Assembly: GCA_964348455.1 (NCBI GenBank)
Contig: CAYGCQ010000002.1
Location: forward strand, 16,121 to 80,120
Source of the DNA: an uncultured Pseudomonadales bacterium
GTDB taxonomy: Bacteria; Patescibacteriota; Microgenomatia; UBA1400; MFAQ01
Direction: 5' to 3'
DNA length: 64,000 bases
Part shown: piece by piece, positions 6,269 through 47,776 of the stretch
Layout: each line of letters begins with the position of its first letter
Position numbering within the stretch: the first letter of the stretch is position 1
Notes under the pieces: model-generated
What the model saw: only the letters and a program-made list of their open reading frames with translations
Database searches by the model: none
Told to the model about the DNA's origin: nothing
Position numbers and translations under genes: made by a program

Positions 6269-6272
6269 CACT

Positions 6273-6896
6273 GTGGTCGATGAAAGGGTATTTTTAAGTG
6301 GAATAGAAGCAATTGCAAGAGGGGAATCATCTCTGGAAATTTGGCAGGTCATGAATCTTGCTGAAAAATTACAGATTGAGAACTTCAGATTTGGCTACTT
6401 ACCCGATTCGGGCATTGTTTCCGGCAAGATTATCGATCGCAAAACAGCCATTTTTCGTTTCTCAGAGGCGCTTTGGGGCATCAAGCCGGAAGGCTGGCTG
6501 GGCATGGAGCAACAGTGGCTCTACTCAGCCAGAATGAAGTCGGGAAGTGAAGAAACATCAGGAAAAGATAGTCTCAATGATATCGTTTCTGCAGAGCTTC
6601 TGCTAAGATTTTTGGCTCTGATTAAATTCATCGATAGTCTTTCAGACCAAGAAGAAAGTGATGAGATTGCTGATGAAGCCATGATTGCCTTCAATACTTA
6701 TCTTCGAGAAGTTCTTGGAAAAGGTAGAACTCGAATAAGTCGTTTTGGTAATCAGTCAATTTACGCAACACTCAAGAATGCTGGCATAATGATCGGCTCC
6801 ATCGGAGGTAAATACTTGCCTAATCCTGAAGTTGCCTTCCCCCAACTTGTGTCTATGTTGACTTGGGAAAAGATCTCTCCGGAAGCATATCTCTAG
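6273..6896 (+). CDS. hypothetical protein (GTG start)
   Basis: 207-aa ORF with a strong SD; no recognisable domain. Confidence 0.5.
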   Translation: MVDERVFLSGIEAIARGESSLEIWQVMNLAEKLQIENFRFGYLPDSGIVSGKIIDRKTAIFRFSEALWGIKPEGWLGMEQQWLYSARMKSGSEETSGKDSLNDIVSAELLLRFLALIKFIDSLSDQEESDEIADEAMIAFNTYLREVLGKGRTRISRFGNQSIYATLKNAGIMIGSIGGKYLPNPEVAFPQLVSMLTWEKISPEAYL

Positions 6897-6905
6897 TATC
6901 AAAGC

Positions 6906-6930
6906 CCCGCTCAATCGAGCGGGTTTTTTT
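6906..6930 (+). terminator. Rho-independent terminator (ccgctc-aatc-gagcgg + T7)
   Basis: Perfect 6-bp stem with a tetraloop immediately after the stop of 6273..6896. Confidence 0.6.
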
Positions 6931-19363: not shown

Positions 19364-20428
19364 ATGAAACTTCGTCATGTTCGACCTTTTCGTGTTGCCA
19401 TCAAATTTTTCTCCACAATCCGTCAACACCTCTTACTAATTTTATTTGCATTCCTACTTGCCACAATCACTTCGCTTGGGGTTTATGGATTTCGCCTTTT
19501 AAATCAGCACAATGTAACACCTCAAGATCTTTTGAGCTTCTTTGGAAAGCCTTCACAAAATCTAGAGAGCACAAATAATATTACCAACTTTCTCTTGCTC
19601 GGAATAAGAGGTGAGGGCGCCGACTCACCCCTACTTACCGACACCATGATTATTTTTTCCTACAATCACGAATCAAAAATACCAACCACAATCAGTATCC
19701 CCAGGGATTTGTGGGTTCCATCCGGCAAGACAAGAATAAATGCGATGTATCAATATGGTGAAGAGGCTAGTCCTGGGGGTGGTATCGCCAGCATTCAAGG
19801 GGCGGTGTTAGAAGATTTAGGTCTGCCAATTCATTACACTGCCGTAGTAGACTTTGAGGTTTTTAGAGAGGCAATAGACCTAGTTGGGGGCATCGATGTA
19901 GATGTGAGTACTGGTTTTACCGACAATGAATTTCCAATACCAGGCAAAGAGAATGCTCTTCCTATTCCCTCACGTTACGAATCGATTACTTTTAACTCCG
20001 GCATTAACCACCTAGATGGAGAAACCGCTCTAAAATTTGTTCGGTCAAGACATTCTTTCGGCGATGAAGGGACAGACTTTGCCAGATCCAGACGTCAACA
20101 GCAAGTAATTTCTGCCTTAAGGCAGAAGATGGTCACCCCCTCATTCTTACTGGATGAAAAAAAAGTCAATTCATTACTGGATATCATTGGTTCAAACCTA
20201 AAAACAAACTTCCCGGCATACCTCTACCCTACTTTGGCCAAGCTAGCTCTCGACACCAAAGATCAAACCATTCAATCCCTGCCTCTTACGAATCTTCCTG
20301 ACGCCGACGGTGTCTCAATTCTTTACAATCCTCCGGTAAGAAACTACTCGGGTCAATGGGTGCTAATTGCCAAAGACAACAACTGGAACGCCCTAAAACA
20401 ATACTTGAAAAACCACCTCTCCCAATAA
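19364..20428 (+). CDS. LytR-CpsA-Psr (LCP) family cell-envelope polymer transferase
   Basis: N-terminal TM, LLLGIRGEGADSPLLTDTMII...ISIPRDLWV LCP core. Confidence 0.8.
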   Translation: MKLRHVRPFRVAIKFFSTIRQHLLLILFAFLLATITSLGVYGFRLLNQHNVTPQDLLSFFGKPSQNLESTNNITNFLLLGIRGEGADSPLLTDTMIIFSYNHESKIPTTISIPRDLWVPSGKTRINAMYQYGEEASPGGGIASIQGAVLEDLGLPIHYTAVVDFEVFREAIDLVGGIDVDVSTGFTDNEFPIPGKENALPIPSRYESITFNSGINHLDGETALKFVRSRHSFGDEGTDFARSRRQQQVISALRQKMVTPSFLLDEKKVNSLLDIIGSNLKTNFPAYLYPTLAKLALDTKDQTIQSLPLTNLPDADGVSILYNPPVRNYSGQWVLIAKDNNWNALKQYLKNHLSQ

Positions 20429-20532: not shown

Positions 20533-22509
20533 CTACCTCACCTTTATCAAGTACGTCCCACCATCTTCAAAAACTTTTACTCCTAGAGATAATATAATAT
20601 CTTCATTTACCTGATACGTAGTTCTCTCATCCTCTCCCACGATAATCCACCCGACGTTATATTCTTTAAGAAGTTCTATTATTTCTACGCTGTTAAAACC
20701 TTCATATATTCCTTTTACATCAGTCTCTCTAGCTGCCACTGGTTCGTACCCACCTCTCCAAAGCCACTCATGAACTCTCCACCCCTGAATAGTAGGCACC
20801 CCGGAAAAAACAGAAACAGCATTAAAGTTTGAGTAACTATCTCCCACCGCTTCCACCATATTTTTACCGTCATAATTTCCCCTTAGATACTTGATTGCAG
20901 CGTATCTTTCCGGCATGCTTGACTCCAACCACCTTTCTCCACTCAAGCCTGAATAGGTATTAAAATTCGCATAGAAATTTGGGAATGCCACTACCGGAAA
21001 CACCATGGTTCCAATGAATATAAATGCTACCGCAAATACGGCAAATGCTCTGTACCACAGAAAAAGTTTTCTTTCTCCATCAAACAACTTACCAAACAGT
21101 GCTCCCGCCAAAAGACCAATCATGATTGAAGCTTGATATGTAAGTTTGAACATTGTGTTTGCTCTTGGGTGATCGGGATAAATATCTTTGGCGTAGACGA
21201 CTTCAGGAATAATGATTAGTAGTAATATACAAATCGCTAATGTCCAGATTGGCAAAGATTTATCTCCTTTTTTCTCAGTCAATACCGCCAGCACACTTAC
21301 TGTTATTCCACCGGTCCACAATACCGCCAGCTCCCAAAGGGGAGTTCTTTCCGTAACCATCTTTATTCCACTCGAAATAGACTGAAAAGTTACAAACCAA
21401 GGTAAGGCCGTCAGTGCCATAAAGAGAAGCATCACTCCGGCAGATTTTAAAAGTTTGACAAACTCTCTATGATCTCTGAGTATCATAATTATTCCCGAAA
21501 CAGTTAGAAGTAGTCCATAAACAGCCACATCCCATGTATTGGTCATCATCATTACTCCAAATAAAATTCCCAGTATCATTTCATCCCATATTTTTCTCGA
21601 ATGAATCCAGTGCAAGAAAATTAAAACAAAAGCCAACACGACCGGCAAATCAATCAGGTGACCATGTAGGTCCGCAACGACGAAAGAGTACCCTGGGAAC
21701 TCGTGAATGGTGTTATGGATAAATCTGGTGGCGTCTGCGTACCAGTAACCCATCAATCCTTTATGATTTAAAAAATACCAAATTACATGGGTATTTCCTG
21801 CCAACACCGTGGCGAATGCTCCGGTTAGTCCTCCAATCATGCCGGACATGTATTTCTTTGTTCCGCTCAAGAAGTATGAAATTGAAAAAGAAATAGAAAG
21901 TGATAGACCGGCTATAAAGGCTAGCATCATGTTATACCCTACGGCCGGGTCGACGCCAAAGTATCGGATAACAATGCTCGCCCAGTAATGCCCAAAAGAA
22001 TAATAGTTTATCGACTTGCCTGCTTGCCACATATCTGCCGCCGGGAGTGTTGGAGACATCAGATATCGGTTTACAAACCCAAAGTCCATAAATTTTTCCA
22101 ATGAGTCAATGTTTGGTAAAAATCCCCTGATATAAGCGATACCAAAAAGACCAACAAAAAATAAATACTCTTCGATGACGATAATTTTAAGAGTAGTTCT
22201 GGAAACGCTAATACTTTTCAATCCGCTTTTAAAGATAATTCCTAAATTTAAAATAATTACACCAGTCGTAGCCAAAATCAAACCCTGGTTTGTGTTGGCA
22301 GCTACACCCAAATTTGCCAGTTCCCAGATGACTAGTCCCGACATCATTGTAGTCAATAGTCTGGAAAGTGGGTAACCATTATCCGGAAGGTTGTGAAACA
22401 ATTTTTTTGTCAAAGGAAAGCTAATAATCTGTAAAAGAAAACTAATCAGATAGACTCTCATTACCAGCGCAATATCAGAGTTAAACATGGTTTTTAAAGC
22501 TTTTAGCAA
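20533..22509 (-). CDS. large polytopic membrane protein, GT-C / DUF2298 (Chlor_Arch_YYY)-like putative glycosyltransferase with a C-terminal extracytoplasmic domain
   Basis: 658 aa, more than 12 TM helices, then a ~170-aa soluble C-terminal domain. FPGYSFVVADLHGHLIDLP resembles the DUF2298 conserved block. Assignment from memory, not searched. Confidence 0.35.
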   Translation of the reverse strand: MLKALKTMFNSDIALVMRVYLISFLLQIISFPLTKKLFHNLPDNGYPLSRLLTTMMSGLVIWELANLGVAANTNQGLILATTGVIILNLGIIFKSGLKSISVSRTTLKIIVIEEYLFFVGLFGIAYIRGFLPNIDSLEKFMDFGFVNRYLMSPTLPAADMWQAGKSINYYSFGHYWASIVIRYFGVDPAVGYNMMLAFIAGLSLSISFSISYFLSGTKKYMSGMIGGLTGAFATVLAGNTHVIWYFLNHKGLMGYWYADATRFIHNTIHEFPGYSFVVADLHGHLIDLPVVLAFVLIFLHWIHSRKIWDEMILGILFGVMMMTNTWDVAVYGLLLTVSGIIMILRDHREFVKLLKSAGVMLLFMALTALPWFVTFQSISSGIKMVTERTPLWELAVLWTGGITVSVLAVLTEKKGDKSLPIWTLAICILLLIIIPEVVYAKDIYPDHPRANTMFKLTYQASIMIGLLAGALFGKLFDGERKLFLWYRAFAVFAVAFIFIGTMVFPVVAFPNFYANFNTYSGLSGERWLESSMPERYAAIKYLRGNYDGKNMVEAVGDSYSNFNAVSVFSGVPTIQGWRVHEWLWRGGYEPVAARETDVKGIYEGFNSVEIIELLKEYNVGWIIVGEDERTTYQVNEDIILSLGVKVFEDGGTYLIKVR

Positions 22510-23779
22510 TTATTTCTGCTACCTCTCGACCCATTTTCACCGCATAGTTTGTCCCTCTATCAAAGGGGTACACCATGCTCATATTCGCCAAGTAGACGTT
22601 ATCAGTAATTTTTTGACTCGGTATATGCTTAGAATAGTTTACAGGGAATACAGGTTGAGCGAAAGGCTTTCGGAATAAGTATGAGTTCTTAATTAATTTT
22701 TTGTCAAAGTTATTGTTAATTTTTTTTATAAAAGGTAAGTACAACTTGAGTAGCTCTACTTTGGTCATATTCAATTGAGCATTATCATCAGGTAAATAGT
22801 TTCCAAGGTAGAGCAATCTATTATTCCCATACATTTTTTTATCAATCATGTTCGTATGTTCTACTGCTACCAAAAATGGAAAATTATTCTCCAAAATATT
22901 TAGCCAATACCCCGATAGTACTTTTCTGGATATCTCCAAAATAAGTGTTTGGCCCCATAGATAATTTAGTTTGGGGAACTTCAGTCCCTTAATAAGCTTT
23001 TCGGCAATTGGCGCAGGCGTCGTAACCACTACGGCATCAAACTCCTCGCCGTTAACAACAATTTTTTTGTTGGAACTCTTATTATCAAGCAATTTGTCAT
23101 CCTCGCGAATGCTGGGATCCACAGTCTTAATTTTCTTGACTACAGTGTTCAACCTTATCTCTCCACCATTCTTTTCAATAAATGTTTCCAGTTTCTCTAC
23201 AAACTCATCAAACCCACCCTCAAAGTAGCCGAGATTCTTTGTTCTTTTTGCTACTCTACTCCAAAACCAAGCTAAATTTACCACATCTACATAAGGTCCG
23301 AACTTGGCTGAGAGTAGTTTTTCCCAAATTAACTCATATCCTTCTCGACCTATTAATCGTGGAAGTGCCTCTACTGCTTTGTATCTTTCCAAGAACAGAC
23401 CATTTGGAATAATCTTTAGCACAAATAGCCCAACACCCATTCTTAGCCTTGACCATAGCGAGAGCTGGGAAAATCTTAAAAGTGAAAGGGGGGAGTCAAG
23501 TCGTACCTCTTTACTATTAAGAAAGCTGGAAGTTATCGGGTTTTTTATTAAAATCTTCGCATTCACTTTTTTCGCAAGGGAAAAAATATCCTTATCATTA
23601 GTAAAAATGTGATGATAGAAAACTTCTAAGTTCCACTTCCATTTTCCAGAATTAAATCCCCGTGCAAGACCTCCTGCTTTTTTGTCTGATTCGAATACAA
23701 CTGAGGAGATATTGTTGTCGGCTAAGTAAGCCGAGCAACAAAGTCCGGTGATGCCTCCACCAATTATCGCAACTCTCAT
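22481..23779 (-). CDS. FAD-dependent flavoenzyme, UDP-galactopyranose mutase (Glf)-like
   Basis: N-terminal Rossmann VAIIGGGITG...E.....GGLAR; YHHIFTNDKDIF matches the UGM GAHIFHTNDKYIW block. Overlaps the downstream membrane protein by 29 nt. Confidence 0.45.
   Translation of the reverse strand: MRVAIIGGGITGLCCSAYLADNNISSVVFESDKKAGGLARGFNSGKWKWNLEVFYHHIFTNDKDIFSLAKKVNAKILIKNPITSSFLNSKEVRLDSPLSLLRFSQLSLWSRLRMGVGLFVLKIIPNGLFLERYKAVEALPRLIGREGYELIWEKLLSAKFGPYVDVVNLAWFWSRVAKRTKNLGYFEGGFDEFVEKLETFIEKNGGEIRLNTVVKKIKTVDPSIREDDKLLDNKSSNKKIVVNGEEFDAVVVTTPAPIAEKLIKGLKFPKLNYLWGQTLILEISRKVLSGYWLNILENNFPFLVAVEHTNMIDKKMYGNNRLLYLGNYLPDDNAQLNMTKVELLKLYLPFIKKINNNFDKKLIKNSYLFRKPFAQPVFPVNYSKHIPSQKITDNVYLANMSMVYPFDRGTNYAVKMGREVAEIIAKSFKNHV
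23095..23120 (+). repeat. REP-like type B element embedded in frame inside the Glf-like CDS (encodes ...VDPSIREDDK... on the minus strand)
   Basis: tgtcatcctcgcgaatgctgggatcc with both family flanks. Confidence 0.5.
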
Positions 23780-23785
23780 CTTTCT

Positions 23786-25198
23786 TTATAGAGCTAAGAG
23801 TATTCCTATGATAGCTAGCATGAGTCCTCCGCCAAATGCGGCTATACCGGGGAAGTCTAAGATTCCAGTCTCAGGAAGTACTTCTCGTTGAGCTACAGCA
23901 TCTGTGGGAGCTACTGTTCCTCCGTCAACGATCTCATCTGTGGGAGCTACTGTTCCTCCGTCAACGATCTCGTCCGTTGGCGCAGCCGTAATCTCGTCCG
24001 TTGGTGCAGCCGTAATCTCATCAGTTGGAGCTGTTGTTGGGCAAACACAGGAACCTGCATCCAAACAGGCTGCTTTTCTACAGGTTTCTGTTCCGGTGTC
24101 ACAAGTTAGACCTGTGGTGCATTCGGAGTCGTCAGTGCATGACTCATTACAAGCAACTACGGACTTGACTGCAAGATCTTTGTCAGCTGTCTTTACGGTA
24201 TCGCCATATGAAAGTTCACTTGTATTTGTAATCACAGTCCCATTCACTGCCGCGTTTGAAACTTTGACCCTAAAAGTAAGCGTCTTTGACGCTCCTACAG
24301 CTAAAGTGATTCCAGAACAGGTAACTTTGTAGTTTGAGTTTGAAAAAGTACAGTCAGTGGTAGTATCTACAAATGTTAACAGATCTTGGTTCTCACCATC
24401 CAATGTATCTGAAACGGTTACATTTGTGGCTGGAGCAGTGCCATCATTTTTAATTACTAAAGCGTATATAAAAGTTTGGTTACGAGAAACTGTTGTGATG
24501 TCGGTTGTGGAACCTTCTTTAAAAGCTTTTTTAGTAATAGACACATCTACCACTTGGCATACAGCAGTTGCAGCACACTGTTTAGTAGTTGCTACTCCGC
24601 ACGAATCCGTACAAGTAGTGATCACCGATGCTGCCTGACCACAAGTAGTAGGACAATCGGGGGAACAAGTTACTTCAGCAGTAGCTACACAAATTGCAGT
24701 TGCAGACACTGAACAGGCCGCGGAAGTTTCGAAACAGATAGTACTGCCATCGGCTTTTTTGCATCTACCGTCGGTTTCGTCGCAGGTAAGTCCAGTAGCA
24801 CACCCGGAGGTTGAAGTACAAACTCCACATTCTGAGGGTTTTGTCGGAGGAGTGGGAGTTGTGGTTGGTGCGGTTGGACATTTAGTCATATCCTTCGTCC
24901 ACGCACCTCCTACGCTAGGGCAACACCAATTTTCATTTCCACAAACCTCTACTCGTCCGGTAGTGGTACAGACGGAATCGCTGGAAGTGCCATCAGACTC
25001 AGGAGGTGTACAGCTTTGTAAGAGGTTCGGTGTCGTTGGGTTCGGACAATGCTCCTCGCAGGTAGCAGCTCTGGAACCTGTTGGGACTATTCCCTGACCT
25101 GTACTAATTCTGTATGAAACAAAGATTGCTGCAGCTGCAATAAGAGCAATAAGAGCTATTGTTATGATTGCGACTATGTTTTTTCTTTTGTTATTCAT
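23786..25198 (-). CDS. Cys-rich, Thr-rich cell-surface protein with a DUF11-like repeat domain and a C-terminal LPETG sorting signal
   Basis: N-terminal TM; many Cys; C-terminal TAAPTDEI repeats; ends VLPETGILDFPGIAAFGGGLMLAIIGILLAL. Confidence 0.7.
   Translation of the reverse strand: MNNKRKNIVAIITIALIALIAAAAIFVSYRISTGQGIVPTGSRAATCEEHCPNPTTPNLLQSCTPPESDGTSSDSVCTTTGRVEVCGNENWCCPSVGGAWTKDMTKCPTAPTTTPTPPTKPSECGVCTSTSGCATGLTCDETDGRCKKADGSTICFETSAACSVSATAICVATAEVTCSPDCPTTCGQAASVITTCTDSCGVATTKQCAATAVCQVVDVSITKKAFKEGSTTDITTVSRNQTFIYALVIKNDGTAPATNVTVSDTLDGENQDLLTFVDTTTDCTFSNSNYKVTCSGITLAVGASKTLTFRVKVSNAAVNGTVITNTSELSYGDTVKTADKDLAVKSVVACNESCTDDSECTTGLTCDTGTETCRKAACLDAGSCVCPTTAPTDEITAAPTDEITAAPTDEIVDGGTVAPTDEIVDGGTVAPTDAVAQREVLPETGILDFPGIAAFGGGLMLAIIGILLAL
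23899..24018. repeat. intragenic tandem repeats: 36-bp unit x2 (perfect) then 24-bp unit x2 (1 mismatch), encoding the TDEITAAP / TDEIVDGGTVAP stalk repeats
   Basis: Direct repeats read from sequence, directly upstream (in gene sense) of the LPETG signal. Confidence 0.8.
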
Positions 25199-25210
25199 TT
25201 TTAATTTCGT

Positions 25211-27190
25211 TTAGTTAGCTGTGGCAACACAAACCCCTAAAGCATCAGGAGTTTTTGAGGATACTTTGCATTCAAACCCAGTCGGGCACTTAATTCCAGC
25301 GACTCCTGCACAAGTTGTTTGAATTGAAGCGGTAGAGGGCGCAGTGCTTACATAAGCCTCGAATTTATATGTTCCAGTTTTTGAAATAGTGTAGTCGTAG
25401 TATGAAGTTAGTTTGGTGGTTGTGTTTAATAGTCCGGAAGCAACAACTTCTACAGTGGAACTTGTTCCCTGAGTAATTCTAAACTTAGCTCTTAAATTCG
25501 CATTGTTTGATCGAACCGCTAATCTAATCTTGTCGTTAATTTTTATTTTGTTTCTTTGGTCCAGGGTCATCGGTGTGGTGTTAAATGTTCCATCAGTTTT
25601 TTGTGAGAACAAGCTAATCTCCATACAAGCACCTGGATTAGCTACGACACACACTTTGGTGCCAGGAACTGTTCTTTTTGTTCCGCAGTTGCTAGTTTGA
25701 TTTACTGTGGCAGTGGTACAAACTGTATTTGCATTAGGTGTCCAACTGGAAACTGTACAGCCTCCCCCTCCACCTTTTGTAGGAGTAGCAGTTACCCCAC
25801 CACCTCCTGTAGAACCGCCGCCACAACCCGAAGTTGACACTACGCATTTGCCACCTGAAATAGCTTCACCTTGGTGACAGCAAAATCTATCTTGGGTTGT
25901 AGCTGTTGCGGTGCTTTTACATGTAAATGCACCAGAGGTATAAGTTGTAGAACAGCAAAGTCCTGGGCTACATACGTCCGTGTACCCTCCGGCGGGTTTG
26001 CATGCTTTAGAGGTAGCACTGTATTCAGGATTTGCTGTAGAACAGCAAAGAGTTGGTGTGCCTACTGAGTTATTGCACGTAGATGCCCCAGCGGTTCCAG
26101 CCGGCAAATTACAATCAACACCCGCTGGACAAGTAGATTTAGACGGATTAGCCACACAAACAGCCCTCGCATTACATCCATCATATGTACCATTTAAACA
26201 ACATGTTAGTTTCATCGTTCCAGGCAAGCTAGAGTTATTAGGAGTACTGCTAAGAGGTGTTGTGCAACTTACTGTTTTTGTATCTTTTCCATATTCACAT
26301 GTTCCGGAAGGAGTTTGAACACATGTTCCTCCGATACACCTATCAGGACTAGTGCACCCAGAATCATTACCACAAATCGTATTGCGACACACTCCACCAA
26401 TAAATTTTTGATCCGCTTCACAACTTTCTGCGGGTGGTGGTGCTGCTGTGGCTGTCCCAGTGAAACACTTTCCACTTAACAAAGGTACTCCAGGGCTACA
26501 ACAGTACTGAGGGGTTGTTGAAGTTGATGAGGAGTAGCACTGTGTGCCTCCGGACTCTGCTCCAAAAGAACATTGTAAATTATTGCCAATAGAGTTACAT
26601 AACTTTTTAGCTGTTGACGGTGTCGGTGTTTTTGCGGGAGTGCCTGTAGCTTGTACACCTCCACAGCCAGATACTTCTGGGTGTCCAATACAACTTGTTT
26701 TTGTAGCATTACAGCTGAAACAGGGGCCGGGGCAGTTTGAAGAAGTACATGTGTATCCTGTTCCGTATCCAGTCGGTGTGGGGGCAATTGGTTTACAAAC
26801 ACCATTAACGCATTTCTCTTTTCCTGCTTTGCACTGAGAGGGGTTGTTTGTACAACCGCCTGCTGCAAACGGCTGAAGTGGTCCGGTCAAGGCTATTCCA
26901 CCTCTGGAAGCCAGCTGATTAGAAACATAATAAGCAGCTCCAGCTACACCCACTACTAGTAGTAAGGCAATCATTCCTAATGCAATTTGTTTAAATTTAT
27001 TTTTCGGTTTCTTCTCTGGCCATTGGATCTCAGGGGTAGTAGGTGATGTTGGTGTTATCGTGGTCGTGGTGGTGGAATCTGGAGTAGTTGTAGTGGTCGT
27101 GGTTAGAGGAGCTCCCAGCGGTTCTTGATTCGGCATCGGAGGATTAAATGGCTGACCGGAAGTTTGATTCGAAAGATTTTGTTCGTCCAT
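25211..27190 (-). CDS. very Cys-rich surface protein (about 60 Cys), N-terminal TM anchor, Thr-rich; paralog of 28244..30208; no C-terminal sorting signal
   Basis: Shares the N-terminal module AGAAYYVSNQL.SR.GIA.TGPLQPFAAGGCTNNP.QCKAGKE.CVNGVCKPIAPTPTGYGTGYTC with the paralog. Confidence 0.65.
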   Translation of the reverse strand: MDEQNLSNQTSGQPFNPPMPNQEPLGAPLTTTTTTTPDSTTTTTITPTSPTTPEIQWPEKKPKNKFKQIALGMIALLLVVGVAGAAYYVSNQLASRGGIALTGPLQPFAAGGCTNNPSQCKAGKEKCVNGVCKPIAPTPTGYGTGYTCTSSNCPGPCFSCNATKTSCIGHPEVSGCGGVQATGTPAKTPTPSTAKKLCNSIGNNLQCSFGAESGGTQCYSSSTSTTPQYCCSPGVPLLSGKCFTGTATAAPPPAESCEADQKFIGGVCRNTICGNDSGCTSPDRCIGGTCVQTPSGTCEYGKDTKTVSCTTPLSSTPNNSSLPGTMKLTCCLNGTYDGCNARAVCVANPSKSTCPAGVDCNLPAGTAGASTCNNSVGTPTLCCSTANPEYSATSKACKPAGGYTDVCSPGLCCSTTYTSGAFTCKSTATATTQDRFCCHQGEAISGGKCVVSTSGCGGGSTGGGGVTATPTKGGGGGCTVSSWTPNANTVCTTATVNQTSNCGTKRTVPGTKVCVVANPGACMEISLFSQKTDGTFNTTPMTLDQRNKIKINDKIRLAVRSNNANLRAKFRITQGTSSTVEVVASGLLNTTTKLTSYYDYTISKTGTYKFEAYVSTAPSTASIQTTCAGVAGIKCPTGFECKVSSKTPDALGVCVATAN

Positions 27191-27468
27191 TTCAGATATA
27201 TTAAGTCCAATAAAATAGGGCCTGAAATAAATATATCTGTTTTATTTCCCAGCGTCAATGATTATTATCATTTACTTTTATCAAATAGTTTTTCTTTTAG
27301 TGTGAGACAAACACTCAATCTTTTTTCCTTCAAAATAACAAGTTAAATGCACTTTTTCTTCACAAAAAAAGTTTCAAATAAAATTTTTATAAATAGAGTA
27401 AAACAAAATCATGAGAAAAAAACTCGCATTATTATTTTTTGCTTAAGACGTGCTGAGTGAACTCCTTC

Positions 27469-28221
27469 TTAGGGTAGAGGTTCTTCTGTTGTTGGCGTCT
27501 GTGAAGTCGAGTCATCAGTCCAAGTGACGTTTCCGAAGTCATCGATGATTATCGCTCTGCATTGATTTCCATAGCGAGCTGTGTTCGGAATGCCGCTACA
27601 GTCCACAGGCTCGTCAGGGTTAACCGTTGCATCTGGAACTACTTCTAGGGCGGGATCAGCCGTGGGGGCTTCGAATGCTGCAGGTTCACTCTCTGGAGCG
27701 GTTGGAGCTACCGCTTGTTGTCCACTGATGGCTTTTGAGACAGCGAAGACCCCACCGCCGGCGAGGCCAAGTACTAATATTGCTATCAATCCAACTATAA
27801 CGGGCGAAGTCCTTGTCTTTTTAGGTAACATTTCTTGGTTGCTAGTCGTCGCTGATGGGGTCGGAAGATCCATAGCTGTACTCGTAGTAGTAGTTGTGTT
27901 TGTCATCGAGTTGGTAGTTCCTGTCTCTCCCATTGGTGTCATTATCGGGGCAGATACGGAAGGTGGTGCTGAAAAAACGGGATTATCCAAGCCTGTAGTT
28001 TCGGGTTGAAAAGATCTTTCTGCCGATGTCGGCTCTGCTGGGGTAATGTCCTCAGTGCTCGTCGTTGTGGTCGTAGTTGTTAAATTAGGTGAGTCGACAG
28101 GTGGGTAGGATTCAGTCGGAGCTATGTCTAAGTTTGGCTGAGCTTGCGGCGGCTGGCTGGAAACAGGGGGTGTTCCTCCGGCTGAAGCGGTATTGAGGTT
28201 CCTTGTGTCGGTATTATCCAT
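27469..28221 (-). CDS. Pro/Thr/Ser-rich bitopic membrane protein, function unknown
   Basis: Low-complexity N-terminal half, central TM VIVGLIAILVLGLAGGGVFAV, 80-aa C-terminal domain with 2 Cys. Confidence 0.45.
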   Translation of the reverse strand: MDNTDTRNLNTASAGGTPPVSSQPPQAQPNLDIAPTESYPPVDSPNLTTTTTTTSTEDITPAEPTSAERSFQPETTGLDNPVFSAPPSVSAPIMTPMGETGTTNSMTNTTTTTSTAMDLPTPSATTSNQEMLPKKTRTSPVIVGLIAILVLGLAGGGVFAVSKAISGQQAVAPTAPESEPAAFEAPTADPALEVVPDATVNPDEPVDCSGIPNTARYGNQCRAIIIDDFGNVTWTDDSTSQTPTTEEPLP

Positions 28222-28243
28222 AATTTATTTTTCTAACTAATAA

Positions 28244-30208
28244 CTAAAGCGCAAGTAATATCCCCACAATTGTAAGTATAAGTCCTCCTCCAAAGGCGGC
28301 CACTCCGGCGAAGTCAAAAATTCCTGCTTCGGGTAATGCTGTTGGCCTAGGAGCTCTCGTTGCTGGGACTCTGGTTGGAACAGAAGCTGTTCGTTCTGTT
28401 GGTTTCGGGCACACACAGGAGGTTATATTTGAACATTCATTGTTTCTGCACTTATTCGTTTCCGTGTCGCATAACAGCCCATCTCCACATTCAGTATCAG
28501 AAGTGCAGGTGTGGTTACAACTCACTATGGTGCTGACTAATAAATCCTTTTCTGCTTTAAGAATTTTTCCCAAATAAGTTACAGTTGCAATATTTTTAAT
28601 TACTGTACCATTGACTACCGCGTCCGAAACGGTTGATCTAAAAGAAAACTCCTTTGTTTCACCCGGATCAAGTGAGGTGTTGCAGACAACCATTTTCTCC
28701 GGCGACGAGTACTCACAGACCGCCTCTTTATCAAGGAAGGTCAGTTTATCTTGGTTTAATCCTGTTAGGGGGTCGGTGATTTTTACCCCATCTGCCTTAT
28801 CAGCCGCATTGTTTGATACTTGAATCGTATATACGAATGTTTGATTTTTTGAGACAGTATCAATTTCCTGAGTCAAAGAGTAGTTTCCTGATGAGTTATC
28901 CGCTTCATCTTGATATGCCTTTTTGTCTATCGAAACATTTGATTCACAGGACTGTGTATTACATGCCTTTTCGGAATTTCCTCCGTCAACCTCATCACAG
29001 TTGAGAGCTCCACCACAACTTCCTTCAGTACAAGTTCTGGTTTGAGTTCCACCTCCACAAGACTTAGTACAATCACTCCAGTCAGACCAAATAGGTGGAG
29101 TTAATACACAAGTTGTCGCGGCCGTAAAATTTCCTTTACATCTATTGTCTTGTCCAAAAACAAGATTTGCCGCCGGTAGCATCAAGTATCTAGCTACGAT
29201 GGTGTAACTTCCTGCCGCCGGTATATTGTAAATATATTCAAATTTTCCGGTTGTCGAATTTAAAATTGTCGGTCCCCAATTTGCATCGTTAATTTTTATG
29301 TCTACTTGGGTAGTATTTTTCGCTGTCACTGCAAATTTTATACGTGAACCTGGCTTTGCTTCAGCTGATAGTTCAGCAGAAGTAAGATTTTTCCAAGACC
29401 CATCTGTTTGTTGAATGGAATAGTCAATGGCGGTACATGAGACAACTGGCGTTGGTGTTGGTGTGGGAGTTTTTGTCGGCGAAGGGGTAGTTGTAGTCTT
29501 CGTTGGTGTCGGTGTAGATGTCTTAGTTGGCTTAGGTGTTGTAGTACTGCCTCCGGAAGAGACACACCCATTACCGCTTGGATTACATACGTATCCCACT
29601 GCACAGCAAGTCATTGCTTTTCCTGTCATATTGATACACCAAGATCTGCCTTGATTCCCACAAGAAATTCGAGTATCGCTTCTACACTCATAACCGGTAC
29701 AAGCATCACCACCTAGACAGTGACAGTCTGCAGCTGGGCATGTTGACCCACAATGGTTAATTACATTTCCATTTGCATCTCTCGGGGCTCCTTCATCGAT
29801 TGGTAGTGCGATGTTTTGTCCTGCTATCCCAGTGCTTGAAACACCCGCACAGCCGAGGGAAATACAACTTGTTTTAGCGGCATTACACTTGAAACACGGT
29901 GATGGACAGTTCGTGGTTGTGCATGTATACCCTGTTCCATAACCTGTGGGTGTAGGGGCAATAGGTTTGCAAACACCATTCACACATGTTTCTTTTCCTG
30001 CTTTACACTGAGCTGGATTGTTTGTACAACCACCAGCAGCAAAAGGCTGAAGAGGTCCAGTTGGGGCTATTCCTGCTCTGGAAGACAACTGATTAGAAAC
30101 ATAATAAGCCGCACCGGCAATTACCACCATCAAAACAGTCGCAATTATGCCTAATAGCAATCGTCGCCTTCGGACTTTATTTTGTTTCAATGACTCTTCT
30201 CCGCTCAT
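28244..30208 (-). CDS. Cys-rich surface protein with N-terminal TM, PT-rich linker, TSP1-like motif, DUF11-like domain and a C-terminal LPEAG sorting signal
   Basis: WSDWSDCTKSCGGGTQTRTC motif; C-terminus ALPEAGIFDFAGVAAFGGGLILTIVGILLAL. Confidence 0.7.
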   Translation of the reverse strand: MSGEESLKQNKVRRRRLLLGIIATVLMVVIAGAAYYVSNQLSSRAGIAPTGPLQPFAAGGCTNNPAQCKAGKETCVNGVCKPIAPTPTGYGTGYTCTTTNCPSPCFKCNAAKTSCISLGCAGVSSTGIAGQNIALPIDEGAPRDANGNVINHCGSTCPAADCHCLGGDACTGYECRSDTRISCGNQGRSWCINMTGKAMTCCAVGYVCNPSGNGCVSSGGSTTTPKPTKTSTPTPTKTTTTPSPTKTPTPTPTPVVSCTAIDYSIQQTDGSWKNLTSAELSAEAKPGSRIKFAVTAKNTTQVDIKINDANWGPTILNSTTGKFEYIYNIPAAGSYTIVARYLMLPAANLVFGQDNRCKGNFTAATTCVLTPPIWSDWSDCTKSCGGGTQTRTCTEGSCGGALNCDEVDGGNSEKACNTQSCESNVSIDKKAYQDEADNSSGNYSLTQEIDTVSKNQTFVYTIQVSNNAADKADGVKITDPLTGLNQDKLTFLDKEAVCEYSSPEKMVVCNTSLDPGETKEFSFRSTVSDAVVNGTVIKNIATVTYLGKILKAEKDLLVSTIVSCNHTCTSDTECGDGLLCDTETNKCRNNECSNITSCVCPKPTERTASVPTRVPATRAPRPTALPEAGIFDFAGVAAFGGGLILTIVGILLAL

Positions 30209-30285
30209 AACAGTGTCCTTAATAAATGTATATCTGATTTACTTTTAATATAGTTTGTATTCAATTAACAAGCAACTTAGGATCT

Positions 30286-31647
30286 TTATTCCTTGATCCA
30301 TTTTCTACTTAGACTGCCAAATAGTAATAATAAAATTCCAAATAGACTAAGCCCCAGAGTCGTTGCCAATCCTCCGGCATCGGTAAGGTCGCCAGATTCA
30401 GTTGCCGGCATCGAAGTCACAACTGTTGGTTCTGGAGTGACAGCCTCGATTGGAGGAAGTGATTCTGTAGGTATCAATATTGGAGTTGCAGACGGAGTCG
30501 CTGTAAAAGCGGGCTGATCACTTAGAAGTACCGAGAACGTTCTAATAATTTTAATTACTTGATTATTTTCGATAGTGTACTCAATCGTTAACGAGTGATC
30601 ACCTGGTTCTAATTTTTCCGGTGGAGTCCACACCCAGTTTCCGTCATCATCTGCTTGAACTACTTGAACTTGCTCTACGGACTTCAAAGTCAATTTGATA
30701 ACCGTTCCTGTTGGAGCTTTCCCTCTTATCTCCGGCTGATCTGTGGCAATTACCTCTCCGTTTGTAGCCGGATTTAGCACTTTAACCGAACTTGTTGCTT
30801 CCAGTTGCTCAGATATGGCTATTTGAGTTAGTTCTAATTGAAATCCTTCACCTGACGGTGCGACTGTTTCCGGTTCTATTGCTGAGATTTGCTGACCACC
30901 TTCAATAAAGCTTTGATTTTTTCCTAATACGATATCCGGCACCGGCTTGTCTTTGCTGGTATCTGTAAGTGCTGTTGCTGTTCCAACACCTCCTGCTTGA
31001 ACAAAAATTGAAAGTAGAGTTTTAGTTTTATCGTAAGTCAATATTCCGCCGGCCTTGTCTCTTGAGCTAGCTAAATTAAGCCTCCAAGTACCATCCGACT
31101 TTGTAATCGTTGAAAGTGTCTGCCCACCCTCTGCTTCCACAAACACAATACCGCCATTTACAGCATCACCAGTTTCTCGAACTACTTTTCCAAAAATAAT
31201 ATCTTCCGGCGGAGCAATGGCTTGTGCGGTTGTTCTAATCTGAAACGGTTTTCCGTTGTCATCATAGGTGCCAGACCCTGAAATGATTAAGAAGTAATAC
31301 GTTTTGTTTGCCGAAAGACCAGAAACATTTACTGTGTGGCTGTTATAACTTTGAGAAGTTCCTGATATTTGGTCTCTAACATCTCCCGCTGGAATTATTA
31401 TTTTTGCCGGATCTTCAGAGTATTTTATTAATCCTGTTAACGGAGTATCCGTAGTCCAACTGACACTGTAAGTTGTCGATCCCAGATTGGAAATCTTAAT
31501 ATTTTTTGGACTCTCGGAAGGTCCGGCTTTGGACTCAAGCCCGGTTCTCATATTTACTACAATGACACCGGCAATCAATCCACCAATAAGAATTATTACC
31601 CCTAATAGGGTCGGAATTCTTTTTGACATTAATCCTTTTGTTGCCAT
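30286..31647 (-). CDS. multidomain surface protein: N-terminal TM, FN3/purple-acid-phosphatase-N-like, carboxypeptidase-regulatory-like and bacterial Ig-like domains, C-terminal LTDAGG + TM + basic tail
   Basis: Domain-like blocks read from sequence; C-terminus ...GDLTDAGGLATTLGLSLFGILLLLFGSLSRKWIKE. Confidence 0.5.
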   Translation of the reverse strand: MATKGLMSKRIPTLLGVIILIGGLIAGVIVVNMRTGLESKAGPSESPKNIKISNLGSTTYSVSWTTDTPLTGLIKYSEDPAKIIIPAGDVRDQISGTSQSYNSHTVNVSGLSANKTYYFLIISGSGTYDDNGKPFQIRTTAQAIAPPEDIIFGKVVRETGDAVNGGIVFVEAEGGQTLSTITKSDGTWRLNLASSRDKAGGILTYDKTKTLLSIFVQAGGVGTATALTDTSKDKPVPDIVLGKNQSFIEGGQQISAIEPETVAPSGEGFQLELTQIAISEQLEATSSVKVLNPATNGEVIATDQPEIRGKAPTGTVIKLTLKSVEQVQVVQADDDGNWVWTPPEKLEPGDHSLTIEYTIENNQVIKIIRTFSVLLSDQPAFTATPSATPILIPTESLPPIEAVTPEPTVVTSMPATESGDLTDAGGLATTLGLSLFGILLLLFGSLSRKWIKE

Positions 31648-31650
31648 ATT

Positions 31651-31971
31651 TTATTGTAGCGGTGGTATAACCTCTGCTGATGGACTTGCTTCCACTAGAG
31701 AAGGTGTCGGGGTGATGGTAGGGGTTTCTTCCGGCACAATCTTTACAGCGTTGATATCATCATCCGTTATTTTTGTTCTTTTTTCTAGGTTATCAATCGA
31801 TGTTTGGCTAATGACACCATCAATAGGCTTCACTATAATTATTTGATTCTCGGTCAGCTGACTTTTTGTAGCAGCAGAAAAAATTTGAAATGCCAGAATT
31901 CCTCCAACAATCGACAAACTCATAACTCCTATGAGTAAAATATACATGGAAAAGGTGTTTTTTGGCTTCAT
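31651..31971 (-). CDS. small N-terminally anchored membrane protein (possible PilP-like accessory), overlaps the pilO-like stop (ATGA)
   Basis: 106 aa, single TM; translationally coupled to the upstream gene. Confidence 0.35.
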   Translation of the reverse strand: MKPKNTFSMYILLIGVMSLSIVGGILAFQIFSAATKSQLTENQIIIVKPIDGVISQTSIDNLEKRTKITDDDINAVKIVPEETPTITPTPSLVEASPSAEVIPPLQ

Positions 31972-32624
31972 GTCTGTTGGTAGAAATAAAAGTATATTTG
32001 ACCAGAAGCTTTCAGTGTTGAAGTTCCCTGTACCATTCCCGGTTCGGAAGTCAACACTACGCTGCTTAGGTATGACAATCTATCCATATTTTCAATCTCC
32101 ATTAAAAATGACTTTACGTTTGCGGGGTCACCTGAAACTGCAAAAGATACATTTAGTTGGACAATGTTATTTGTGTCTTTAATTGACAATTTTCGTGACC
32201 ATTCACCCGATGCTTTTCCTGTTCCAAATAGCTTTGTCCCCGGCATAGAAACTGTTTGTACTGTCAGACCTTTATTCTGGGCAAGATACTCAATCCTGCC
32301 TGCCATATCATAATATGAGAATTGGCTTGGAACAGCTGCGTCAAAAAGGCTCAGTTTATCCTTAAACTTGTTCAGTTCTGTTTGGGCGTTAAAAACTTGA
32401 GCAATTTTATTGTCGGCTTTTATATTAAAAGAATTTAAATCTTCAATCTTTTTTTGCAAAGAGGCGATATTTGTCAGTGTTGGTCTGATGGCTGCAAAAA
32501 TCAACACTGTCACTGTAAATACAGAAAGAATCACTTCTAAAGAAGCCTTAACTTCAGGCTTCTGATAAATCAAGTTTATTCTTCTGTAAATAAGAGAATA
32601 TTTTTCGTTACTTACAAGAGGCAT
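31968..32624 (-). CDS. pilO: type IV pilus assembly protein PilO-like
   Basis: N-terminal TM + coiled coil + about 100-aa C-terminal domain; start overlaps the pilN-like stop (TAATG). Confidence 0.45.
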   Translation of the reverse strand: MPLVSNEKYSLIYRRINLIYQKPEVKASLEVILSVFTVTVLIFAAIRPTLTNIASLQKKIEDLNSFNIKADNKIAQVFNAQTELNKFKDKLSLFDAAVPSQFSYYDMAGRIEYLAQNKGLTVQTVSMPGTKLFGTGKASGEWSRKLSIKDTNNIVQLNVSFAVSGDPANVKSFLMEIENMDRLSYLSSVVLTSEPGMVQGTSTLKASGQIYFYFYQQT

Positions 32625-33169
32625 TATTTTAAAGTAGTTTGAATATTAAACTTTACGGTACCGGATGTCTGGTCGAAGTTTGTTTCTTTCATGGATAAGC
32701 GAGAGATTCCATCTATCTTCTTCAAGTTTCTCAACAGTTGAGCAAAACCTAGCTCGGTCTCCGACTCTCCAGTGAGAACCATACCGGCACTATCAATAGC
32801 CAATTTATCCAATTTAACTCCTGGTGGCATTAAACCTCCCAGCTCATCATATCTTTGGCCAAAAGATAAATTTTTCGTTAAATAGTTATTGACTGGAGCT
32901 TGTTTGGCCAAATAATATCTGATGGTTGCTTCTGTTTCTGCAAACGCTTGAATCTGAATTTGTTTTTGATCTATTTCATCATTTAGGTCATTAACCTTTT
33001 TGTCAAAATAGAACCTAGAACCGAAAGCTAGCAGAACAACGAACTCAGTCAGAACCACCAGCACTCTGCCTGTAGTAGTTGCCCATGACAAAAATTTACC
33101 CAATGAAGAATAACTAAAGCTATCTTTAGGTAATAAATTTATATGGAAAACTCCTTGCTGGGCAGCCAC
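32624..33169 (-). CDS. pilN: type IV pilus assembly protein PilN-like
   Basis: N-terminal hallmark HINLLPK (the PilN INLLP motif) followed by a TM helix and coiled coil. Confidence 0.6.
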   Translation of the reverse strand: MAAQQGVFHINLLPKDSFSYSSLGKFLSWATTTGRVLVVLTEFVVLLAFGSRFYFDKKVNDLNDEIDQKQIQIQAFAETEATIRYYLAKQAPVNNYLTKNLSFGQRYDELGGLMPPGVKLDKLAIDSAGMVLTGESETELGFAQLLRNLKKIDGISRLSMKETNFDQTSGTVKFNIQTTLK

Positions 33170-33211: not shown

Positions 33212-33448
33212 TTACTTGGAAATCTTTTTAGAGAGGCGAGACTTGATACGGTCGGCTTTTCCTTTTTTGATGACTCCCTTTTTAGCTGCACGGTCAATGG
33301 CCGAGAAGGCTTTGCTTAGAGACTCTCCGGACAGGAGTTTTTTGAATTCGTCCATAGCAGTCTTTGCTTTGGTTTTAGTAGAGCGGTTAAAAGAAGCTTT
33401 CTTTAAGTCGGCTCTTTGTTTCTTGATTGCGGATTTGGTTATAGGCAT
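33212..33448 (-). CDS. rpsT: 30S ribosomal protein S20
   Basis: 78 aa, highly basic, MPITKSAIKKQRA...AIDRAAKKGVI.K.KA.R.KSRL matches the S20 pattern. Confidence 0.85.
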   Translation of the reverse strand: MPITKSAIKKQRADLKKASFNRSTKTKAKTAMDEFKKLLSGESLSKAFSAIDRAAKKGVIKKGKADRIKSRLSKKISK

Positions 33449-47768: not shown

Positions 47769-47776
47769 AGTCCAAA

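Follow-up and report, generated by a model that had tools for sequence, protein, structure and literature searches.

We conclude, with about even confidence, that the co-directional gene run described here is the Collierbacteria form of a conserved cell-envelope block, in which three modules are juxtaposed rather than joined in one operon and in which a flavoenzyme/DUF2298 pair would carry out lipid-dependent glycosylation. The prevailing view is that CPR bacteria live attached to other cells and, to our knowledge, almost nothing is known of how the CPR surface is built or decorated. Module 1 would comprise rpsT-pilN-pilO together with the genes for two membrane proteins, one of 106 aa and one of 453 aa with Ig domains; module 2 would be a hypervariable island in which two to four genes encode surface proteins rich in Cys and Thr/Pro, with CLIPPER stalk domains; and module 3 would be a tightly spaced or overlapping gene pair for a soluble flavoenzyme of PDS/PPOX fold and a GT-C transferase of the DUF2298 family. 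The best homologues come from Collierbacteria and Microgenomates MAGs, which supports a CPR host and agrees with the episymbiotic, small-genome bacterium proposed in a first-pass annotation of this DNA. In the window, by which we mean the whole 64-kb stretch that was analysed, the features of interest are:

33212..33448, minus strand: rpsT (ribosomal protein S20), 78 aa; heads the co-directional run and ends 42 nt before pilN
32624..33169, minus strand: PilN-like bitopic membrane protein, 181 aa; PF05137, INLLP near the N terminus
31968..32624, minus strand: PilO-like protein, 218 aa; PF04350, C-terminal part only
31651..31971, minus strand: 106-aa protein; N-terminal TM segment, Pro/Thr-rich tail, no family match
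30286..31647, minus strand: 453-aa Ig-domain protein (FN3-like, CarboxypepD_reg-like and Big_13, from Pfam) with an N-terminal TM segment
28244..30208, minus strand: 654-aa surface protein, Cys-rich; Thr/Pro linker, TSP1-like motif, CLIPPER/DUF11 and LPEAG tail
27469..28221, minus strand: 250-aa Thr/Pro-rich orphan ORF with one TM segment; no Pfam match
25211..27190, minus strand: 659-aa protein, Cys-rich (7.7%); signal-anchor at the N terminus, no known domain or sorting tail
23786..25198, minus strand: 470-aa Cys-rich protein with CLIPPER/DUF11, a repeat-bearing linker and LPETG tail
22481..23779, minus strand: 432-aa soluble protein; FAD-dependent oxidoreductase, NCBIfam PRK07233 family, PDS/PPOX-type fold
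20533..22509, minus strand: DUF2298/Chlor_Arch_YYY polytopic membrane protein, 658 aa; GT-C fold, AglB-like globular domain at the C terminus
19364..20428, plus strand: LytR-CpsA-Psr (LCP) family gene, convergent with the DUF2298 gene and syntenic throughout Collierbacteria

The ten ORFs from pilN to the DUF2298 gene are all present at the coordinates of the first-pass annotation. Recomputed in gene order, the gaps are -1 (TAATG), -4 (ATGA), 3, 77, 22, 278, 12, 6 and -29 nt; the 78 and 279 nt given earlier were each one too many. The run had also been taken to start at pilN, and its true first gene is the co-directional rpsT, the ORF and translation of which are very similar to the S20 gene annotated by Pfam at this position in the related locus L004. 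At the other end, the public gene call starts the DUF2298 protein at ATG 22488, giving 651 aa and shrinking the overlap with the flavoenzyme gene from -29 to -8 nt; this ATG is likely the start.

The entire block is syntenic across Collierbacteria. The housekeeping flanks are equally so and, thus, gene order in this lineage is no proof of function or of a single operon-level role. In distant genomes, the adjacency of the flavoenzyme and DUF2298 genes is all that is kept of the block, and the two adjoin in 41/43 informative genome loci. In L048, the pair is found at 30% identity in divergent orientation, and in L049 (Dojkabacteria) at 27% in convergent orientation, all other neighbours having changed in both. 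Outside the syntenic Collierbacteria block, the pil genes are unlinked to the pair. Outside Collierbacteria the pair is not beside adhesin genes and, therefore, any assignment of the acceptor leans on adjacency within a lineage in which the housekeeping flanks are just as syntenic.

In module 1, the PilN and PilO assignments of the first-pass annotation held. PilN matches PF05137 at residues 107-179 (36.8 bits vs a Pfam cut-off of 22.8); its N terminus reads HINLLPKDSF followed by VLVVLTEFVVLLAF, i.e. an INLLP-type motif and one TM segment, and the PilM-binding INLLP/INLIP motif is kept across 24 PilN homologues. PilO exceeds the PF04350 cut-off by a thin margin (25.4 vs 22 bits), residues 152-216 alone matching, and pilO always follows pilN in related loci. 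The 106-aa protein, without a match in family searches, has a same-position homologue in nearly all related loci with pilN-pilO. In the 453-aa protein, Big_13 and Pur_ac_phosph_N (FN3-like) exceed the Pfam cut-off. This protein has a C-terminal signal of its own, MPxT.S..L.[DE].G followed by a TM segment and a basic tail, as read from the complete homologues among 27 matches. Pfam searches of ORFs of at least 120 aa in the 64-kb window detected no pilM, pilB/T/C, pilin or sortase gene, and a motif scan detected no prepilin or TLxTC signature in any real ORF of the window; the two scans agree with the earlier report that pilM, pilin and sortase are absent. A split pilus system, one of two possibilities raised there, fits a related complete Microgenomates genome, in which PilA, B, C, D, T and M are encoded at another locus and a sortase is present (PMC7143001). 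PilN and PilO would be the alignment proteins in the membrane part of a type IV pilus, with the genes for PilM, the ATPases and the pilins lying elsewhere.

The proteins of module 2 had been described as paralogous, Cys-rich and LPXTG-like, a description borne out by comparisons among them and by a shared tail. Their Cys contents are 6.4% (654 aa), 7.7% (659 aa) and 7.0% (470 aa). CLIPPER/DUF11 (PF01345) is matched in the 654-aa and 470-aa proteins at 36.0 and 41.4 bits, respectively, vs a cut-off of 24.6, with candidate isopeptide residues recognised by eye as K (SITKK/SIDKK), D (VSDTL/ITDPL) and N (ITNTS/IKNIA). A candidate Thrombospondin type 1 repeat (PF00090) in the 654-aa protein reaches 21.2 bits vs a cut-off of 21.6 as an isolated 65-aa segment with WSDWSDCTKSCGGGTQTRTC. 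The 654-aa protein is a mosaic of both neighbours, and its gene has a 267-nt DNA repeat in common with that of the 659-aa protein, which has no LPXTG tail and the counterpart of which in relatives is 555-633 aa long and without a Pfam domain. The 250-aa ORF is missing from public gene calls, had no homologue detected in 49 related loci in a SEG-filtered search and weakly matches the TM region of the 659-aa protein; it may be a degenerate gene copy. In related loci, the island holds 2-4 genes inside conserved flanks, with only local similarity (29-61%), and in this genome it appears to have been enlarged by mosaic duplication. The Thr-rich tracts at the N termini of the 659-aa and 250-aa ORFs come before the membrane anchor; these tracts may be cytoplasmic and beyond the reach of a GT-C enzyme.

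The 654-aa and 470-aa proteins end in LPEAG and LPETG, respectively, each followed by some 24 residues, most of them hydrophobic. The tail is 29 residues long and nearly invariant throughout, LPE[TA]GI[LF]DxPG[VI]AAFGGGLLLAxxGILLAL, and was found in about 38 ORFs of related loci. Among 60 representative clusters, the tail is at the extreme C terminus in 59 and ends in LAL, FAL, LAF or MAL without a basic residue, also in 59. The positively charged C-terminal end of an LPXTG signal is likewise absent here, both proteins ending ...GILLAL. No NCBIfam model reaches its cut-off on the tail; TIGR01167 gave 10.8 bits vs 15.9 for one of the two tails and no match for the other. Judged by sequence, the tail is probably a lineage-specific sorting signal.

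In module 3, the 432-aa enzyme had been called Glf-like, and both HMM searches and structure comparison place it outside the UGM family. It matches PRK07233 over positions 1-433 of 435 (352.9 bits vs a cut-off of 252 in NCBIfam) and Amino_oxidase PF01593 over residues 10-424 (77 bits), and no GLF (PF03275) is among its Pfam matches at E 0.1 or below. HpnE, PPOX and PDS models outscore every listed mutase model. In Foldseek, PPOX and PDS take the top ranks, the nearest structures being phytoene desaturase and protoporphyrinogen oxidase, and no UGM is in the top 50. For this family, more than 2,700 close homologues were scored and a single metagenome scan yielded over 580 relatives; many Arg, Lys, Tyr and Trp residues are invariant. 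Based on the family matches and the Foldseek ranking, membership of the UDP-galactopyranose mutase family was rejected for the enzyme. The two do have in common an FAD-binding fold superfamily and a remote similarity of the N-terminal half, and hhalign against E. coli Glf covered the FAD-binding half alone (64% probability), the substrate-binding half failing to align. Because UGM belongs to the same fold superfamily, the flavoenzyme may have mutase-type chemistry.

The 658-aa protein matches PF10060 (270.6 bits) and TIGR03662 (Chlor_Arch_YYY; 404.3 bits vs a cut-off of 300.25) and has a GT-C fold in a confident model, with ArnT as the second-best structural match and a C-terminal domain resembling protein oligosaccharyltransferase (AglB-like). 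Thus, of the two enzyme assignments made at first pass, the mutase fell and the DUF2298/GT-C protein stood. In its YY(Y/S)xG motif, N161-Y162-Y163-S-F165-G166, every position except S is invariant, and D36, E107, E131, D135 and D152 are invariant in 48 DUF2298 sequences; the catalytic carboxylate expected of GT-C enzymes in the first extracytoplasmic loop may be among these five. GT-C enzymes take lipid-phosphate donors, not UDP-Galf. This argues, together with the family matches and the unlinked pil genes, against the proposal that the flavoenzyme is a UDP-galactopyranose mutase and that the DUF2298 protein puts Galf on Thr-rich adhesins of a pilus-linked host-attachment operon, which we regard as very unlikely.

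The neighbours of the pair in relatives suggest that the DUF2298 protein uses a lipid-phosphate-linked sugar. In a set of 80 metagenomic loci, the flavoenzyme gene is directly preceded by LPG_synthase_TM in 18/52, by GtrA in 7 and by GT2 in 6. At least one of GT2, GtrA, an LPG_synthase_TM flippase-like gene and PMT_2/DUF2298 lies within three genes of the flavoenzyme gene in 40/71 metagenomic loci; the other 31/71 have no recognisable glycosylation neighbour, partly owing to the seed sequences used. DUF2298 is present in nine metagenomic flavoenzyme loci, and PMT_2 is beside the flavoenzyme gene in L054, L077, L080, L086, L099 and L110. In L040, the starts of GT2, flavoenzyme and polytopic-protein genes overlap and PMT_2 adjoins DUF2298; in L048, PMT_2 follows the flavoenzyme gene; and in L049 the order is PAP2, SLH protein, GT2, GtrA and flavoenzyme, adjoining DUF2298. 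This window has no GT2, GtrA or flippase-like gene and, therefore, the donor pathway rests on distant relatives.

From the observed domains, folds, paralogy and conserved neighbourhoods, we infer a donor, a flavoenzyme chemistry and an acceptor as follows. A GT2 encoded elsewhere would put a sugar on polyprenyl phosphate; the flavoenzyme would modify this lipid-linked intermediate at the cytoplasmic face, as ArnD and DprE1 do with theirs; a flippase would carry the lipid-linked sugar outward; and the DUF2298 protein would hand it to an acceptor outside the cytoplasm. The likeliest acceptors would be the Thr/Pro-rich linkers of those surface proteins whose genes lie just upstream of the pair.

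The same pair could instead serve a cell-wall glycopolymer (secondary cell-wall polymer, teichoic-like chain or arabinogalactan-like chain), which the adjacent LCP enzyme would then attach to peptidoglycan. This is possible, on the unlikely side. The LCP gene, being syntenic across Collierbacteria, marks such an alternative acceptor pathway; however, it lies on the opposite strand, and in L048 and L049 it is missing, as are the other flanks. Moreover, the C-terminal domain of the DUF2298 protein is like a protein oligosaccharyltransferase, PMT_2, which often accompanies the pair, is a member of the protein O-mannosyltransferase/ArnT group, and in every syntenic locus inspected only a few nt (6 nt here) separate the end of a CLIPPER gene from the start of the flavoenzyme gene. 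Alternatively, the flavoenzyme could saturate or isomerise a polyprenyl double bond, yielding a dolichol-like carrier for DUF2298- or PMT_2-type GT-C enzymes. We consider this improbable: undecaprenyl phosphate is the presumed carrier in CPR bacteria, and the invariant Arg, Lys, Tyr and Trp residues suit a phosphate/sugar site as well as a lipid tunnel.

Within the lipid-dependent glycosylation that we favour, we tentatively propose, as a rather unlikely generalisation, that the PRK07233-type flavoenzyme is an unrecognised step of extracytoplasmic glycosylation, converting a polyprenyl-phosphate sugar or its carrier into a special donor for DUF2298/PMT_2 that ends on the tail-sorted surface proteins of Collierbacteria. 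Possible chemistries are oxidation/epimerisation, furanose ring contraction on a lipid-linked substrate and carrier saturation. If so, the module would operate in CPR bacteria and the many other lineages carrying it, and Collierbacteria would decorate surface proteins sorted by a new and almost invariant LPETG...GILLAL tail without basic stop-transfer residues. Current understanding is not overturned; rather, an annotation gap becomes testable. An orphan flavoenzyme family recurs beside genes for GT2, flippase-like and GT-C proteins, which suggests a donor-modifying step not described so far; the large DUF2298 family, hitherto without a function, gains a functional handle from the confident GT-C model and the oligosaccharyltransferase-like domain; and a lineage-restricted, unusually invariant sorting tail on fast-evolving Cys-rich proteins would be a marker of the Collierbacteria cell-surface proteome.

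The three modules each resemble known systems. Module 1 is like the type IV pilus PilM-PilN-PilO subcomplex in its PilN/PilO Pfam matches, the 1-nt gene overlap and the PilM-binding motif; by contrast, there is no pilM, ATPase, platform protein or pilin gene nearby, rpsT precedes and two lineage-specific membrane proteins follow. CLIPPER has been described as a stalk domain with an isopeptide bond, found in fibrillar adhesins (bioRxiv 10.1101/2025.04.25.650565). The proteins of module 2 are like sortase-anchored CLIPPER (DUF11) fibrillar adhesins in this domain, the Pro/Thr linkers and the C-terminal LPXTG with a hydrophobic segment, whereas they have one CLIPPER domain instead of a tandem stalk, a very high Cys content and a tail that is nearly invariant throughout, ending without basic residues.

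For module 3, Glf differs from the flavoenzyme in its GLF domain, its substrate-binding half and its family. Mycobacterial DprE1 adopts a vanillyl-alcohol-oxidase fold and depends on the reductase DprE2; compared with DprE1/DprE2 and AftA/Emb, the flavoenzyme fold here is of the amine-oxidase/PDS type and no DprE2-like partner was seen. In actinobacterial O-mannosylation (Ppm1 and PMT), a GT-C enzyme glycosylates Thr/Ser/Pro-rich secreted regions from a polyprenyl-phosphate sugar, and PMT_2-family genes recur here beside the flavoenzyme and DUF2298 genes; however, DUF2298 is a separate family with a putative donor and acceptor, and the PMT pathway is not known to involve a flavoenzyme. Compared with the GtrA/GtrB/Gtr(type) and ArnC-ArnD-ArnE/F-ArnT systems, the extra enzyme is a PDS/PPOX-fold flavoprotein instead of a deformylase, the GT-C protein belongs to the uncharacterised DUF2298 family, and GT2 and flippase genes are not adjacent in the window. 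Relatives of the pair likewise combine GT2, a small flippase (GtrA/LPG_synthase_TM-like) and GT-C and, as with soluble ArnD in the Arn pathway, encode a soluble enzyme among them.

All ten minus-strand ORFs that the first-pass annotation described within 20533-33169 were found as described. The gaps between them, when recomputed, were -1, -4, 3, 77, 22, 278, 12, 6 and -29 nt, i.e. the earlier values of 78 and 279 nt were each off by one and the others were correct. For the gene of the DUF2298 membrane protein, we dropped the TTG at 22509 as the start codon and prefer the ATG at 22488, which the public annotation also uses; from this start, the final gap is -8 nt and not -29 nt. The window itself is part of a metagenome contig (ENA ERZ27247837). 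Moreover, a co-directional gene for ribosomal protein S20 precedes pilN and, therefore, the run comprises eleven genes. The S20 ORF closely resembles a Pfam-annotated S20 gene at the same position in one relative, whose place in the public gene call is taken by an ORF of 81 aa that runs the other way. The latter is thus not the S20 ORF. The features discussed here are:

33212-33448, minus strand: ribosomal protein S20, 78 aa, 42 nt upstream of pilN and on the same strand
30286-31647, minus strand: Ig protein, 453 aa
28244-30208, minus strand: Cys-rich protein, 654 aa
27469-28221, minus strand: Thr/Pro-rich ORF, 250 aa
25211-27190, minus strand: Cys-rich protein, 659 aa
23786-25198, minus strand: Cys-rich protein, 470 aa
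22481-23779, minus strand: flavoenzyme, 432 aa
20533-22509, minus strand: DUF2298 membrane protein, 658 aa from the TTG
19364-20428, plus strand: LCP gene

A scan for promoters and terminators performed no better than on shuffled sequences (33 promoter-like sites vs 26.4; eight terminator-like sites vs 11.9) and says nothing about operon structure, and neither an Rfam nor a tRNA scan gave a match in the window. Elsewhere in the window, the ORF at 6929-7999 (minus strand) has UDP-glucose/GDP-mannose dehydrogenase domains with HTH_36/LexA-type DNA-binding matches ahead of them and a seemingly truncated NAD-binding domain; either this is an unusual fusion or its start is misplaced. In the 158-aa S15 ORF at 47662-48138 (plus strand), the S15 domain covers residues 71-150 only; the true start is probably downstream, the other option being an N-terminal extension. 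Four ORFs had no Pfam match at E <=0.001, i.e. 46186-47160 (plus strand, 324 aa), 52287-53681 (minus strand, 464 aa), 54096-54722 (minus strand, 208 aa) and 56853-57581 (plus strand, 242 aa).

All close homologues with an informative name were from MAGs of Candidatus Collierbacteria, Woesebacteria or the "Microgenomates group", and the assignment to a CPR host is therefore reasonable. The PilN-like (PF05137, 36.8 bits, cut-off 22.8) and PilO-like (PF04350, 25.4 bits, cut-off 22) proteins were both recognised by their Pfam profiles, and the PilM-binding motif INLLP/INLIP was retained in all 24 PilN homologues recovered. As previously noted, the window lacks pilM, pilin and sortase genes; neither these nor pilB, pilC or pilT were detected by Pfam searches of the other ORFs of at least 120 aa or by a motif scan. 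In the complete genome of a related member of the Microgenomates, PilA, minor pilins and PilB, C, D, M and T are encoded at one locus, which is listed without PilN or PilO, and this genome has one sortase (PMC7143001). A pilus system split between loci would fit these observations.

The Ig protein contains FN3-like, CarboxypepD_reg-like and Big_13 domains (Pfam); a PDB sequence search gave no useful match for this protein or for PilN. Its conserved C-terminal signal (30286-30440, minus strand; homologues in genome loci L003-L047) consists of MPxT.S..L.[DE].G, a TM segment and the basic end KKWW[RK]D, and is unlike the 29-residue tail, LPE[TA]GI[LF]DxPG[VI]AAFGGGLLLAxxGILLAL, of two of the Cys-rich proteins:

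28244-28333, minus strand: tail, end of the 654-aa protein
23786-23875, minus strand: tail, end of the 470-aa protein

The tail is nearly invariant in ~38 ORFs of the related loci. An exhaustive search of 1.84 billion proteins recovered it in 60 representative clusters (P0243-P0302), the members of which are 48-1059 aa long and <50% identical outside the tail; in 59 of these clusters it is at the extreme C terminus. The cluster count is that of the exhaustive representative search; a word-index search with a 41-aa tail gave three fragments only. The positions past LPXTG are mostly >90% conserved, the Pro of LPXTG only 85%, and a basic end is missing. With 10.8 bits, the LPXTG model TIGR01167 stayed below its cut-off of 15.9, and the other sorting-signal models of NCBIfam did not match. 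In total, the tail is LPXTG-like but atypical, and its processing by a sortase is plausible.

The Cys-rich proteins (Cys 6.4-7.7%, Thr 12-17%) are paralogous, as had been proposed, with an LPXTG-like tail shared by two of them and with mosaic identities. The 654-aa protein resembles the 659-aa protein in its N-terminal part (residues 8-127 vs 60-183, 73% identity) and the 470-aa protein in its C-terminal part (residues 379-654 vs 181-470, 37% identity). At the DNA level, a 267-nt direct repeat (80% identity) links the N-terminal coding parts of the 659-aa (26687-26953) and 654-aa (29861-30127) genes, a sign of duplication or recombination inside the island. The linker of the 470-aa gene (APTDEI..., 23899-24028) contains perfect 36-nt x2 and near-perfect 24-nt x2.6 tandem repeats, suggesting that repeat expansion is ongoing. 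In relatives, two to four genes lie between those for the Ig protein and the flavoenzyme, and their similarity to the window genes is local only. A single CLIPPER/DUF11 domain is present in the 654-aa protein (36.0 bits) and in the 470-aa protein (41.4 bits). In fibrillar adhesins, this domain forms stalks and usually has an intramolecular isopeptide bond (bioRxiv 10.1101/2025.04.25.650565). The 659-aa protein had no Pfam match, and PDB sequence searches with the 470-aa protein and the isolated CLIPPER domain gave no useful match; for the isopeptide triad, no alignment with 9IFR was obtained. At residues ~373-392 (~29030-29090, minus strand), the 654-aa protein also has a thrombospondin type-1-like motif, WSDWSDCTKSCGGGTQTRTC, which is unusual for a bacterial protein and scored 21.2 bits with PF00090 (cut-off 21.6).

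The 250-aa ORF is not called publicly, and a SEG-filtered search of 49 related loci gave no homologue for it; we rejected it as a conserved gene, and it may be the remnant of a decaying gene. The N-terminal Thr tracts of this ORF and of the 659-aa protein stand ahead of the membrane anchor and may be cytoplasmic; the idea of a glycosylated stalk is therefore confined to internal linkers.

We collected 46 genome loci with the DUF2298 profile; among those from Collierbacteria, a single gene order recurred in every contig of sufficient length. This order is LepA, MurJ, (S20), PilN, PilO, small protein, Ig protein, variable Cys-rich genes, flavoenzyme, DUF2298, LCP, TIM, UvrD and FemAB. Because the flanking LepA, MurJ, LCP, TIM, UvrD and FemAB genes are equally syntenic, gene order does not argue for cooperation between the pil genes, surface proteins and enzyme pair. 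Thus, we rejected synteny as proof of a single adhesin-glycosylation operon, and the block as a single module is not demonstrated.

The flavoenzyme had been annotated as UDP-galactopyranose mutase (UGM)-like, with galactofuranose as a possible sugar; this claim fails at the family level. Residues 10-424 match Pfam Amino_oxidase, and NCBIfam PRK07233 matches end-to-end (352.9 bits, cut-off 252), followed by HpnE, protoporphyrinogen oxidase and phytoene desaturases, i.e. the protein is assigned to a non-UGM family, the outcome that the first-pass annotation had named as refuting for this gene, and no GLF domain was reported in Pfam and NCBIfam profile searches. AlphaFold predicted the structure with confidence (pLDDT 91.6); in Foldseek, protoporphyrinogen oxidases, phytoene desaturase and amine oxidases ranked highest and UGM was absent from the top 50. 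With E. coli Glf, the FAD-binding half alone aligned (hhalign 64% probability, E 6.4e-5; BLASTP E 0.001), and a PDB sequence search gave a weak PPOX match only. Judged from profiles and the structural model, the flavoenzyme is not a member of the UGM family, and from the fold alone mutase-type chemistry may be considered. We did not retain a polyprenol reductase, for which there was nothing beyond fold analogy. We also discounted CrtN/CrtQ-like carotenoid-glycoside biosynthesis, given that GtrA and GT-C genes accompany the flavoenzyme and that no locus examined contained a CrtM-type synthase.

By contrast with the mutase, the proposed GT-C membrane protein was confirmed as DUF2298 (PF10060, 270.6 bits; TIGR03662, 404.3 bits), with a confident predicted structure (pLDDT 90.3, pTM 0.92). 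D36, E107, E131, D135 and D152 are invariant acidic residues among 48 homologues, and the protein is a predicted GT-C enzyme. A PDB sequence search gave no useful match; in the literature, we found DUF2298 in two incidental mentions only, and GT-C enzymes of Patescibacteria in no paper.

Of 43 informative loci, 41 have the flavoenzyme gene next to that for DUF2298; in the exceptions, an upstream flavoenzyme is missing (L035) or lies 8 kb off (L040). Even in L048 (30% identity) and the Dojkabacteria locus L049 (27% identity), where all flanks differ, the two genes abut, divergently and convergently, respectively. The distant gene orders are:

L049, one strand: PAP2, SLH-domain protein, GT2, GtrA, flavoenzyme
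L040: GT2, flavoenzyme, polytopic protein (starts overlap), then 204-aa ORF, GT4, methyltransferase
L040: PMT_2, divergent from DUF2298
L048: flavoenzyme, then PMT_2

A metagenome scan with a profile from distant flavoenzyme relatives gave >583 relatives, and 80 loci were analysed. The same-strand gene immediately upstream of the flavoenzyme (n=52) encoded an LPG_synthase_TM flippase-like protein in 18 cases, GtrA in seven and GT2 in six. With a limited seed set, 40 of 71 metagenome loci had at least one glycosylation-type gene within three genes of the flavoenzyme, and nine of 71 had DUF2298. Large polytopic neighbours were PMT_2 proteins in L054, L077, L080, L086, L099 and L110. Moreover, the order DUF2298, large polytopic gene, flippase-like gene, flavoenzyme recurred in the non-Collierbacteria metagenome contigs L086, L087, L099 and L105; here, the flippase-like gene is LPG_synthase_TM (Pfam count and seed match) and the polytopic gene is PMT_2 where scanned (L086, L099). 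L080 also encodes a 1042-aa fusion (4649-7777) of a PMT_2-type GT-C and a C-terminal NHL-repeat beta-propeller, at the same locus as DUF2298 and, beyond two smaller membrane-protein genes, the flavoenzyme.

In total, the pilus alignment genes, the sorted Cys-rich paralogues and the GT-C enzyme of the first-pass annotation stand, and the UGM and galactofuranose do not at the family level. Most likely, the block comprises three juxtaposed envelope modules, in which the flavoenzyme-DUF2298 pair would be a conserved, uncharacterised glycosylation unit dependent on lipid-linked sugars. The LCP gene follows DUF2298 in the Collierbacteria order, and the acceptor could be a wall polymer handled by this adjacent LCP enzyme; we weakly favour the neighbouring surface proteins, the genes of which precede the pair. 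Whichever the acceptor of the predicted glycosylation pair, the flavoenzyme loci follow the same gene logic as GtrABV, ArnC/ArnD/ArnEF/ArnT, and DprE1 with AftA. By analogy, we infer that the flavoenzyme would occupy the position of the donor-modifying enzyme in a three-component, lipid-linked extracytoplasmic glycosylation system.
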